Shown here one piece after another: positions 39,891-41,159 of a stretch of 64,000 nucleotides of DNA (positions are counted from its first letter, which is position 1; each line of letters opens with the position of its first letter). The notes below the pieces were generated by a model. The model was not told where the DNA came from. It was given only the letters and a program-made list of their open reading frames with translations, and searched no databases. Source of the stretch: a virus; the IMG/VR virus record IMGVR_UViG_3300028048_000003. The stretch is one strand, 5' to 3'. A program made the translations under genes and the position numbers.

Positions 39891-40229
39891 ATATTCTGTC
39901 CTCCCCGATAAGTAAAATTTTAATACCCCAGACTGCACAGGTATCTGTCTCCAATTACGCAGGAGAGTTTGAACGGTCGATACATCCCGAACATCACGCC
40001 GTAGGTCTATCCTAGGAATACAATACAACACATGTCTAGGCAATCTCTCACCGCCGAATCGAGGGACTTATATGGGAGCGCCCGACATATCGCCTGTGTC
40101 ATATCGGAGTTTTAACGTCTTGTCTTTGACAGCTTAATTTAGAATGTTATTTATATACCTGTTTTACGGCTTATCTCTCGGCATGACCGTACCTCGTTAC
40201 TTTCTCGCACTTGCGCTACATCTGGATAA

Positions 40230-40320
40230 TGGTGCGAGAGACGGGATTCGAACCCGTATGATATTTCTATCGAGGGTTTTTAAGACCCTTGCGCCTACCA
40301 CATGATTACGCCACTCTCGC
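40230..40320 (-). tRNA. tRNA-Leu (anticodon UAA), type II with a long variable arm, CCA encoded
   Basis: Acceptor stem GCGAGAG/CTCTCGC. Anticodon stem AGGGT/ACCCT with loop CTTAAAA. T-arm ACGGG-TTCGAAT-CCCGT. Confidence 0.9.
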
Positions 40321-40663
40321 ATAATAATTGGTTTTTTCGTCTTTTCCTTGACGACCTAGCTTTTCAGATGTGTTTTAGTGCTGGCCAGTCACTTCAAGCA
40401 TAGTCCCATTCACATCAGGGGCTTTAGGATTCGGTGCGGCGCTCCTGCCACCTTTCAGACAGGTCGCAATCCGCAGAGATGGTTCCAACATTTTTTAAGC
40501 GCATTTTCCATTCGGCGCTGCTGTTTTACCCACCTACCAGCAAGGGAAGCCTGAGCGTCGTGAATCGCGGCCTTGTCAGCCAAAACCAGTATGCTCCTAA
40601 AACATCAGGGACATCTGGAGTTCACGGTGGCTCACGCAAAAAAACTCGACCAATCATTCATAA
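40321..40663 (-). ncRNA. 343-nt ORF-free structured spacer inside the tRNA operon (candidate ncRNA)
   Basis: It is co-transcribed between tRNA-Thr and tRNA-Leu and is GC-rich. A 9-mer, ACATCAGGG, is repeated at 40412 and 40602, each next to one arm of the complementary pair TTTAGGA/TCCTAAA. Several local hairpins are present. Confidence 0.35.
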
Positions 40664-40739
40664 TGGAGCTACCGAGAGGAATCGAACCTCCAACCTACGC
40701 ATTACAAGTGCGTTGCTCTACCAGTTGAGCTACGATAGC
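40664..40739 (-). tRNA. tRNA-Thr (anticodon UGU)
   Basis: Cloverleaf read by hand. Anticodon stem ACGCA/TGCGT with loop CTTGTAA. T-loop GGAGG-TTCGATT-CCTCT. CCA encoded. Confidence 0.9.
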
Positions 40740-40898
40740 ATGATAATGTACCCAGATGTCAAAAGAATCTTTTTTAGTTGGAAAGGAGGTATTCTTACTG
40801 GGTACATCTTTATAAAATCACCCTTTTTTATAAATTGCTCAGGTCAACCTTTATAAAATATCGCTTTTTTATAAAAACAGGTGATTAAATAAACATAT

Positions 40899-40973
40899 TG
40901 GCAGGGGTTACTGGACTCGAACCAGTGATGCGGGAGTCAAAGTCCCGTGCCTTAACCACTTGGCAAAACCCCT
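40899..40973 (-). tRNA. tRNA-Gln (anticodon UUG)
   Basis: Acceptor stem AGGGGTT/AACCCCT. Anticodon stem CGGGA/TCCCG with loop CTTTGAC. T-arm ACTGG-TTCGAGT-CCAGT. CCA encoded. Confidence 0.85.
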
Positions 40974-40975
40974 AT

Positions 40976-41051
40976 TGGTGTACCAAGCACGGCTCGAACG
41001 CGCGACCTACGGATTAAAAGTCCGTTGCTCTACCTACTGAGCTATTGGTAC
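40976..41051 (-). tRNA. tRNA-Lys (anticodon UUU)
   Basis: Acceptor stem GTACCAA/TTGGTAC. Anticodon stem ACGGA/TCCGT with loop CTTTTAA. CCA encoded. Only 2 nt separate it from tRNA-Gln. Confidence 0.9.
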
Positions 41052-41130
41052 ATGATATATGGTTTTAGCGAGTTTTCCTTCTCGATTTGAGGTTTTCTTC
41101 TCTTCCGAAGTTCTCCTCACTACGGTTTAT

Positions 41131-41159
41131 ATCATATCACTTTTTAGGTCTGTTGTAAA
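41131..41159 (-). promoter_or_regulatory. sigma70-type promoter of the tRNA operon
   Basis: On the minus strand: TTTACA (41159-41154), 17-nt spacer, TATGAT (41136-41131). About 75 nt upstream of tRNA-Lys. Confidence 0.55.

Follow-up and report, generated by a model that had tools for sequence, protein, structure and literature searches.

What do the long spacers of a phage tRNA operon contain when no gene can be found in them, and do they belong to one large RNA of the GOLLD or ROOL kind? The question is raised by the operon at 39891–41159 on the minus strand of IMG/VR virus record IMGVR_UViG_3300028048_000003, analysed as a stretch of 64,000 nucleotides (nt), hereafter the window, in which tRNA-Lys, tRNA-Gln, tRNA-Thr and tRNA-Leu are followed by a 73-aa gene. 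The original prediction pointed to the two spacers of about 340 nt, one on each side of tRNA-Leu, as a possible large non-coding RNA with an embedded tRNA. Two structured RNAs, designated S5 and D, were found in these spacers, along with a conserved non-coding element, E, and a small repeated hairpin, M. With little more than even confidence, the spacers are read here as a mosaic of separately inherited non-coding modules that would be co-transcribed with the tRNAs and released as small RNAs by tRNA processing. The modules of the window are as follows.

40549–40637, minus strand: S5, an 89-nt Y-shaped structured RNA, known from three lineages and described by a covariance model.
39920–40131, minus strand: D, a structured RNA domain of ~212 nt, identified by RNAalifold, covariation and single folds.
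40354–40520, minus strand: E, a sequence-conserved non-coding element with a body of ~155 nt (40362–40517).
41061–41084, minus strand: M copy 1, in the leader, CGAG-AAGGAAAA-CUCG with the tail CUAAAACC, ending 9 nt before tRNA-Lys +1.
40330–40353, minus strand: M copy 2, at the 3' end of E, CGUC-AAGGAAAA-GACG with the tail AAAAAACC, ending 9 nt before tRNA-Leu +1.
Within 39920–40131, minus strand: M copy 3, at the start of D, UGUC-AAAGACAA-GACG.

Related loci were gathered with the upstream 192-aa gene and the downstream 73-aa gene as anchors, which gave ~25 informative contigs (designated by L numbers) from human-gut and other metagenomes. Most of these relatives have no tRNAs at the position of the operon, and the remainder carry 1–9 tRNAs in varying order. 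BLAST searches and alignments split the window spacers into modules with independent distributions: S5 is present without D in L137, D without S5 in L001, and E without either in L261–264, and the nine tightly packed tRNAs of L134 are accompanied by none of these modules. S5 and D adjoin each other directly in the L123/L136 lineage, without an intervening tRNA; relative to that arrangement, therefore, the window has E and the tRNA-Leu cassette inserted.

S5 is read as a real structured RNA. It occupies the 5' part of the 343-nt spacer between tRNA-Thr and tRNA-Leu, is always preceded by tRNA-Thr, 11–29 nt away, and recurs after tRNA-Thr in two further lineages at 71–76% identity. In this fold an 8-bp closing stem is separated by a 3/2-nt internal loop from a 6-bp stem, beyond which lie two hairpins. 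Folded singly, the three lineages give the same Y-shape, with the minimum free energy structure identical to the centroid and z-scores of -3.50, -3.03 and -3.64. The RNAalifold consensus has 30 pairs, four of them with changes on both sides, and 97.3% of its cells are paired, against 22–39% with slid partners. The covariance model built on S5 recovered only the 10 expected loci from 1.57 Mb searched. A loose S5 pattern matched at least 120 stretches in IMG/VR, the majority of them spanning a constant 77 nt; of all these matches, the model accepts only L136. In the window only UU follows S5, and then C-rich sequence; in L137, S5 carries a U/C-rich tail, UUUUCCAUUUUUU, and closes the unit before a protein gene.

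D is likewise read as a real structured RNA, a multi-helix domain at the 3' end of the operon. It makes up most of the 339-nt spacer after tRNA-Leu and aligns end to end with L001 and the L123/L136 lineage, large indels aside. RNAalifold predicts 65 pairs in 11 helices, enclosed by a closing helix of UUAAAACUCCG (40115–40105) with CUGGGGUAUUAA (39931–39920), which joins the tail of the M hairpin to the sequence YGGRGUAUUAA ~200–300 nt downstream. On the fixed structure 96.4% of cells pair, and 13 of the 65 pairs show compensatory changes, compared with 4.8 +/- 1.6 in column-shuffled alignments (none of 500 reaches the observed count) and 0–2 in slid controls. The closing helix and several arms recur in independent single-sequence folds of the three lineages, with z-scores of -3.60 (L123) and -2.69 (L001). 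The sense strand of D surpasses the antisense strand in stability by 19 kcal/mol and the per-pair counts hold many G-U wobble pairs, both features indicating the tRNA strand. D is non-coding: its indels are not multiples of three, and a 25-aa open reading frame (ORF) towards its 3' end loses its frame in L001. What comes after D in L123 and L136 is not the gene but a tRNA, a further module and a terminator. Within the contiguous S5–D of L123, the two fold as separate domains, and helices between them are not predicted.

These modules only partly coincide with what had been noticed in the spacers earlier. All motifs named in the original prediction are present where it placed them. None of the ORFs in the spacers is conserved, and the 140-aa plus-strand ORF crosses tRNA genes, as had been stated. 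The structural features cited at that time, a duplicated 9-mer and a 7-nt long-range pair, differ from the conserved ones. Shuffling the 343-nt spacer produces a repeated 9-mer by chance in 14% of cases, and the pair TTTAGGA/TCCTAAA is not conserved, one of its arms lying inside hairpin C of S5, in a segment absent from L123 and L137. The description of this spacer as GC-rich holds to a small extent only (0.481 versus 0.447 for the window). That the spacers of about 340 nt are structured holds in the sense that they contain the conserved, apparently structured S5 and D, but as whole units the two arms are not unusually stable, with z-scores of -1.80 and +0.56. Similarly, tRNA-Leu does lie between two apparently structured elements, S5 and D, but the view of these as parts of one large RNA is not supported.

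M is a 4-bp hairpin with the loop AARGAMAA and the tail YUAAAAC(C/U). Three copies are perfect, and all of these belong to the operon and share its strand, whereas 0.47 copies per 64 kb are expected by chance with one mismatch allowed. Nine distinct copies across loci are 100% paired, and three of the four pairs covary. The spacing of exactly 9 nt to tRNA +1 is shared by the leader copy and the copy at the end of E. At the M copies, which form the joints of the mosaic, modules have been acquired, deleted or relocated. M copy 2 forms the left boundary repeat of the tRNA-Leu cassette (about 40125–40345), which is bracketed by two M copies and is precisely missing from L093, a 97%-identical relative; the L093 deletion falls between two 23-nt direct repeats. 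The cassette includes a trailer.

40132–40229, minus strand: trailer of the tRNA-Leu cassette, for which no relative has matching sequence.

E comprises about 170–200 nt in the 3' part of the 343-nt spacer (about 40321–40520). Eight copies were found, those of L001, L093, L094 and L261–L264 being 90–93% identical to that of the window, on backbones that are 81–97% identical. In L001, L094 and L261–263, E separates the promoter from the first tRNA (Leu or Lys); in L264 it stands directly ahead of the first tRNA (Gln), with no promoter identifiable upstream; in the window it is located mid-operon, ahead of tRNA-Leu. A role as a tRNA-Leu-specific leader was rejected, since E precedes Lys or Gln in L261–264. 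Two possible genes in E were also rejected: a 38-aa ORF (40375–40491) is frameshifted in four of the eight copies (L001, L261–263), and the same indels disrupt an antisense 58-aa ORF. A sigma-54-like site, TGGAAC-N5-CTGC, noticed by eye, was discarded because the GC of its -12 element is lost in L001. Exact and gapped patterns of E matched only the contig of L001 in IMG/VR. Overall, E is most aptly characterised as a non-coding leader element that is conserved in sequence, any structure being putative.

The third spacer, 159 nt between tRNA-Gln and tRNA-Thr, is the only one with unusual folding stability as a whole (z = -4.08). Two features were found in it.

40808–40890, minus strand: an AT-rich segment of two tandem units of ~41 nt, each with two TTTATAAA palindromes.
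40743–40807, minus strand: a long hairpin, AUGUACCCAG ... CUGGGUACAU, directly 5' of tRNA-Thr.

The tandem units (GC ~0.28) occur only in the closest relatives (L093, L112–114) and are absent from L261–263, in which the long hairpin is 94–95% conserved. The TTTATAAA units could be protein-binding sites, or they could simply be part of the stable fold of this spacer. Profile searches with hidden Markov models over 2.4 Mb of collected loci did not find extra copies of the modules.

The operon that carries these modules has the following components.

41131–41159, minus strand: sigma-70-type promoter, TTTACA-17-TATGAT with a TG extension, 10 of 12 matches, the top site in the region.
40976–41051, minus strand: tRNA-Lys(UUU), ARAGORN and Rfam, 70.8 bits.
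40899–40973, minus strand: tRNA-Gln(UUG), ARAGORN and Rfam, 63.4 bits.
40664–40739, minus strand: tRNA-Thr(UGU), ARAGORN and Rfam, 71.3 bits.
40230–40320, minus strand: tRNA-Leu(UAA), ARAGORN and Rfam, 53.4 bits.
39888–39906, minus strand: ribosome-binding site GGGGAGGA and TTG start of the 73-aa gene, after which the dUTPase gene follows.

ARAGORN and Rfam agree on the four minus-strand tRNAs that had been read from the sequence, and their coordinates give the spacers of 2, 159, 343 and 339 nt. The promoter proposed at 41159–41131 proved to be the best match in the region, and its sequence is kept in L001, L093 and L261. No terminator-like site was found on the operon strand (minus strand of 39000–42000), including the interval between the operon and the 73-aa and dUTPase genes, and neither S5 nor any other hairpin in 39000–42000 has the form of an intrinsic terminator, a short G+C-rich hairpin followed by a U run.

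Membership in known RNA families was examined with Rfam models. At gathering score, no family other than tRNA was found in the whole 64-kb window, and at E<=10 with permissive filters the interval 39500–41400 yielded only the four tRNAs and a 13-bit permuted-tmRNA match on the T arm of tRNA-Leu. The suggested membership in GOLLD or ROOL accordingly found no match in either scan. The contig L137, from a distant phage that shares S5, served as a positive control: it contains a full-length ROOL (RF03087) at 5938–6495 on the minus strand (214.8 bits, gathering score 99.1), which shows such a scan to be capable of finding a complete ROOL in related sequence. A compact unit of an odd tRNA, tRNA-Thr and S5 follows ~1 kb downstream of this ROOL on the same strand, with a 229-aa ORF between; the same ROOL region is present in L139, and the ROOL model had no match in the direct relatives of the window. 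A hidden tRNA, pseudo-tRNA, intron-containing tRNA or tmRNA was excluded in the spacers, as ARAGORN reported four tRNAs and no tmRNA and Rfam nothing credible; the check for degenerate tRNAs or tmRNA advised in the original prediction found neither in the spacers. Hammerhead-like CUGAUG motifs were rejected, their core being incomplete and an Rfam ribozyme match being absent. A search of 39850–41200 against 50,697 phage records by blastn in its 'distant' setting matched tRNA genes only.

According to the preferred reading, the promoter at 41159–41131 would drive one precursor across the tRNAs and the modules, and cleavage by RNase P at tRNA 5' ends and RNase Z/E-type cuts at 3' ends would free the modules as discrete small RNAs. 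Since the modules begin and end at tRNA or M boundaries, we infer tRNA-processing nucleases as the agents of release. M would probably act in cis at tRNA 5' leaders and may also serve as a homology patch for cassette exchange, in what would be an accessory, recombination-prone region. Several points weigh against this mosaic of released RNAs. Co-transcription, release by processing, the stability of the modules and any trans-acting role are deduced from the arrangement of the locus. The covariation of both S5 and D comes from only three independent lineages, and the alignments that show it are also those from which the structures were obtained. The compensatory count of S5 alone is not significant, being reached by 91 of 500 shuffles. 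The window copy of D is a trimmed version (z = -0.79) that has lost the distal helices 5–7, with helix 5 largely broken. E has neither thermodynamic support (z = -0.43 and +0.51) nor support from covariation (one of 41 predicted pairs compensatory, covariation term +0.72), and its conservation could reflect recent lateral spread. In the proposed covariation check on related phages, the 13 pairs of D exceeded the shuffles, the count for S5 alone did not reach significance, and E gave no support. The modules are also narrowly distributed: D is rare, with three IMG/VR contigs only, the E pattern found nothing in GTDB genomes, and the S5 pattern gave no credible match there, a contig designated L141 being rejected by the covariance model.

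The modules may instead be purely cis-acting elements of processing, stability or termination, none of them a free RNA; this is unlikely, yet it is the alternative that deserves the most serious weight. S5 would then be a protective or terminator-like trailer of tRNA-Thr, M would be a hairpin of the 5' leader that positions or modulates RNase P, and D would be a structured 5' untranslated region that stabilises or regulates the mRNA of the 73-aa gene and dUTPase. The invariable position of S5 shortly after tRNA-Thr (11–29 nt) and its U/C-rich tail in L137 agree with such roles, as do the fixed 9 nt between M and tRNA +1 and the end of D shortly before the downstream ribosome-binding site in the window (~13 nt) and in L001. 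However, D of L123 and L136 is not directly followed by the gene, L261–264 express the same downstream gene without any D, and the presence of more tRNAs past S5 in the window and L123 indicates that S5 is no efficient terminator there; moreover, a domain of 11 helices is elaborate for a stabiliser. Quite improbable, in our estimation, is one large GOLLD- or ROOL-like RNA extending from S5 to D, with tRNA-Leu in a variable linker. It would account for the contiguity of S5 and D in L123, L136 and L138 (~440 nt, z = -3.61) and for the insertion of E and tRNA-Leu between them in the window; GOLLD linkers sometimes carry tRNAs (PMC12286853), and a phage that shares tRNA-Thr and S5 has a true ROOL ~1 kb upstream. 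Against it stand the absence of a GOLLD or ROOL match at every threshold tried and a conserved structure of ~300 nt in the window, far below the 581 nt of ROOL and the more than 800 nt of GOLLD. The separate folding of S5 and D, for which no inter-domain pairing is predicted, and their independent distribution (in L001 an unrelated tRNA-like helix takes the place of S5) further argue against one GOLLD-like molecule.

Very improbable is the explanation of the modules as selfish or passively shuffled DNA, such as insertions resembling miniature inverted-repeat transposable elements or recombination scars, in which recency would pass for conservation and terminal inverted repeats for pairing. The modules do move, duplicate and are deleted at short repeats, D has UUAA-containing inverted ends, E is nearly invariant without a structural signal, and the modules are narrowly distributed. 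Inverted termini alone, however, leave the branched internal structure unexplained, and the fold of S5 is kept at about 71–76% identity. In D, the 13 compensatory pairs are spread over internal helices, and together with the G-U wobbles and the sense-strand bias they indicate selection on the transcribed RNA strand.

The mosaic of co-transcribed modules can be compared with known RNAs of tRNA regions. ROOL is a structured RNA of phages and prophages, typically located near tRNA islands (PMC5737381; PMC12286853). The modules resemble it in being structured RNA near phage tRNAs, and true ROOL (RF03087) does occur near tRNA-Thr and S5 in L137 and L139. ROOL, however, forms one unit of 581 nt with multistem junctions and pseudoknots (a model of ~574 positions), whereas S5 (89 nt) and D (~212 nt) are smaller, separate, unrelated to it in sequence and inherited independently. 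GOLLD (RF01998) is also found near tRNA islands, and its linkers sometimes contain tRNAs (PMC12286853). The likeness here lies in the tRNA-adjoining phage location, which is contextual and not family-specific, and in the tRNA-Leu cassette between structured modules. GOLLD is usually longer than 800 nt, with a 3' domain conserved throughout the family; in the window, tRNA-Thr is separated from the downstream gene by 773 nt that include a tRNA and an unconserved trailer, no model matches, and the flanking modules are independently inherited.

RNAC and RNAD of phage T4 are co-transcribed with the tRNAs and excised by tRNA processing. The modules resemble them in their location in a phage tRNA cluster, on the tRNA strand, and in being non-coding. 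They differ in lacking sequence similarity, as the blastn search of 50,697 phage records found tRNAs only, and in size, D (212–325 nt, 11 helices) being larger than the T4 species. T4 is a coliphage, while the window probably belongs to a phage of an anaerobic gut or rumen bacterium, as NrdD and the sample sources suggest, and its modules are known from sequence. RNAC and RNAD are described as small RNAs of the phage tRNA region with unknown function (PMC3014915; PMC9697503). Functional spacers of bacterial tRNA operons, in which spacer or trailer RNA freed in tRNA maturation has its own function, offer a further parallel, S5 being a conserved trailer on the 3' side of tRNA-Thr. The 3' external transcribed spacer of Escherichia coli glyW-cysT-leuZ reportedly acts as a sponge of small RNAs. 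Such bacterial spacer sponges are short and single-stranded, whereas the modules of the window exceed them in length and are highly structured.

Catalogues of candidate viral structured RNAs exist, one of them with 10,006 candidates (PMC10690425). S5 and D are absent from Rfam 15, and judged against that release they therefore look like previously undescribed motifs of a known kind, phage tRNA-island structured RNAs. It is quite improbable that D, alone or with S5, represents a new class of phage tRNA-island RNA sharing the role of ROOL and GOLLD, for example as a self-assembling RNA scaffold or a tRNA-linked decoy employed in infection. If it did, the tRNA-Leu cassette would be a natural tRNA embedded between the domains of that RNA.

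A number of other features were recorded in the related arrays. In tRNA-rich lineages (L123 4541–4710, L134 5427–5536, L007 7734–7765 and L106 1857–1881), the last tRNA is succeeded by one more conserved non-coding module, ~110 nt long. Its end in L123 is formed by a clear intrinsic terminator, GAGCAUGGUGU-UACACCGUGCUC-UUUUUU, which immediately precedes the downstream gene; the window has no equivalent of this terminator. A RAGATH-18 RNA is located at 110–181 of L106, just upstream of the anchor gene (68.3 bits, gathering score 44.9), with no counterpart in the window. Genes for tRNA-like RNAs with insertions of ~30–60 nt were found at L137 4838–4974 (minus strand), L123 3813–3940 and L136 1538–1636. 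They keep the acceptor stem and T arm, two of them score 35–36 bits with the Rfam tRNA model (99–137 nt), and ARAGORN misses them in all three contigs; they may be intron-containing or otherwise non-canonical phage tRNAs. In L001, a 72-nt tRNA-like helix (7489–7560) follows tRNA-Thr where the window has S5; its 7-bp acceptor GACAGCG/CGCUGUC and T arm GCAGG-UUCAAGU-CCUGC are called by neither ARAGORN nor Rfam. Among the genes at L126 3202–3275, L131 2689–2762 and L138 645–731, ARAGORN reported a tRNA-His with the unusual anticodon ATG and a tRNA with an undetermined anticodon.

Genes of the window are those of a tailed phage, including genes for a portal protein, a 2958-aa tail protein with a minor-tail domain and a DnaG/DnaB primase-helicase, together with DNA polymerase III alpha, anaerobic NrdD and dUTPase. 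DNA polymerase III alpha is encoded by two ORFs (54863–58930, minus strand), which abut exactly in the Pfam profile (4–103 and 104–260) and are parted by ~1 kb with a 247-aa ORF (56833–57576); this split looks like an insertion of an intron, intein or homing endonuclease. The NrdD ORF (33927–34907, minus strand) spans profile positions 264–562 only, and the N-terminal half may be encoded by the upstream ORFs 35098–35646 and 36064–36723, which would make it a second split gene.

The finding is a lead rather than a discovery, based on the sequences of three lineages. T4 RNAC and RNAD, ROOL and GOLLD are enigmatic tRNA-island RNAs that have no established function, and to these the locus adds two compact candidate RNAs, S5 and D, the conserved leader E and the junction hairpin M, all of them absent from Rfam 15. 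The mosaic illustrates the gain and loss of tRNA cassettes at joints formed by short repeated hairpins. Because natural variants exist in which each module is present, absent or moved, ready-made genetic comparisons are available, and these could bear on the importance of such RNAs for tRNA maturation, phage gene expression or counter-defence.

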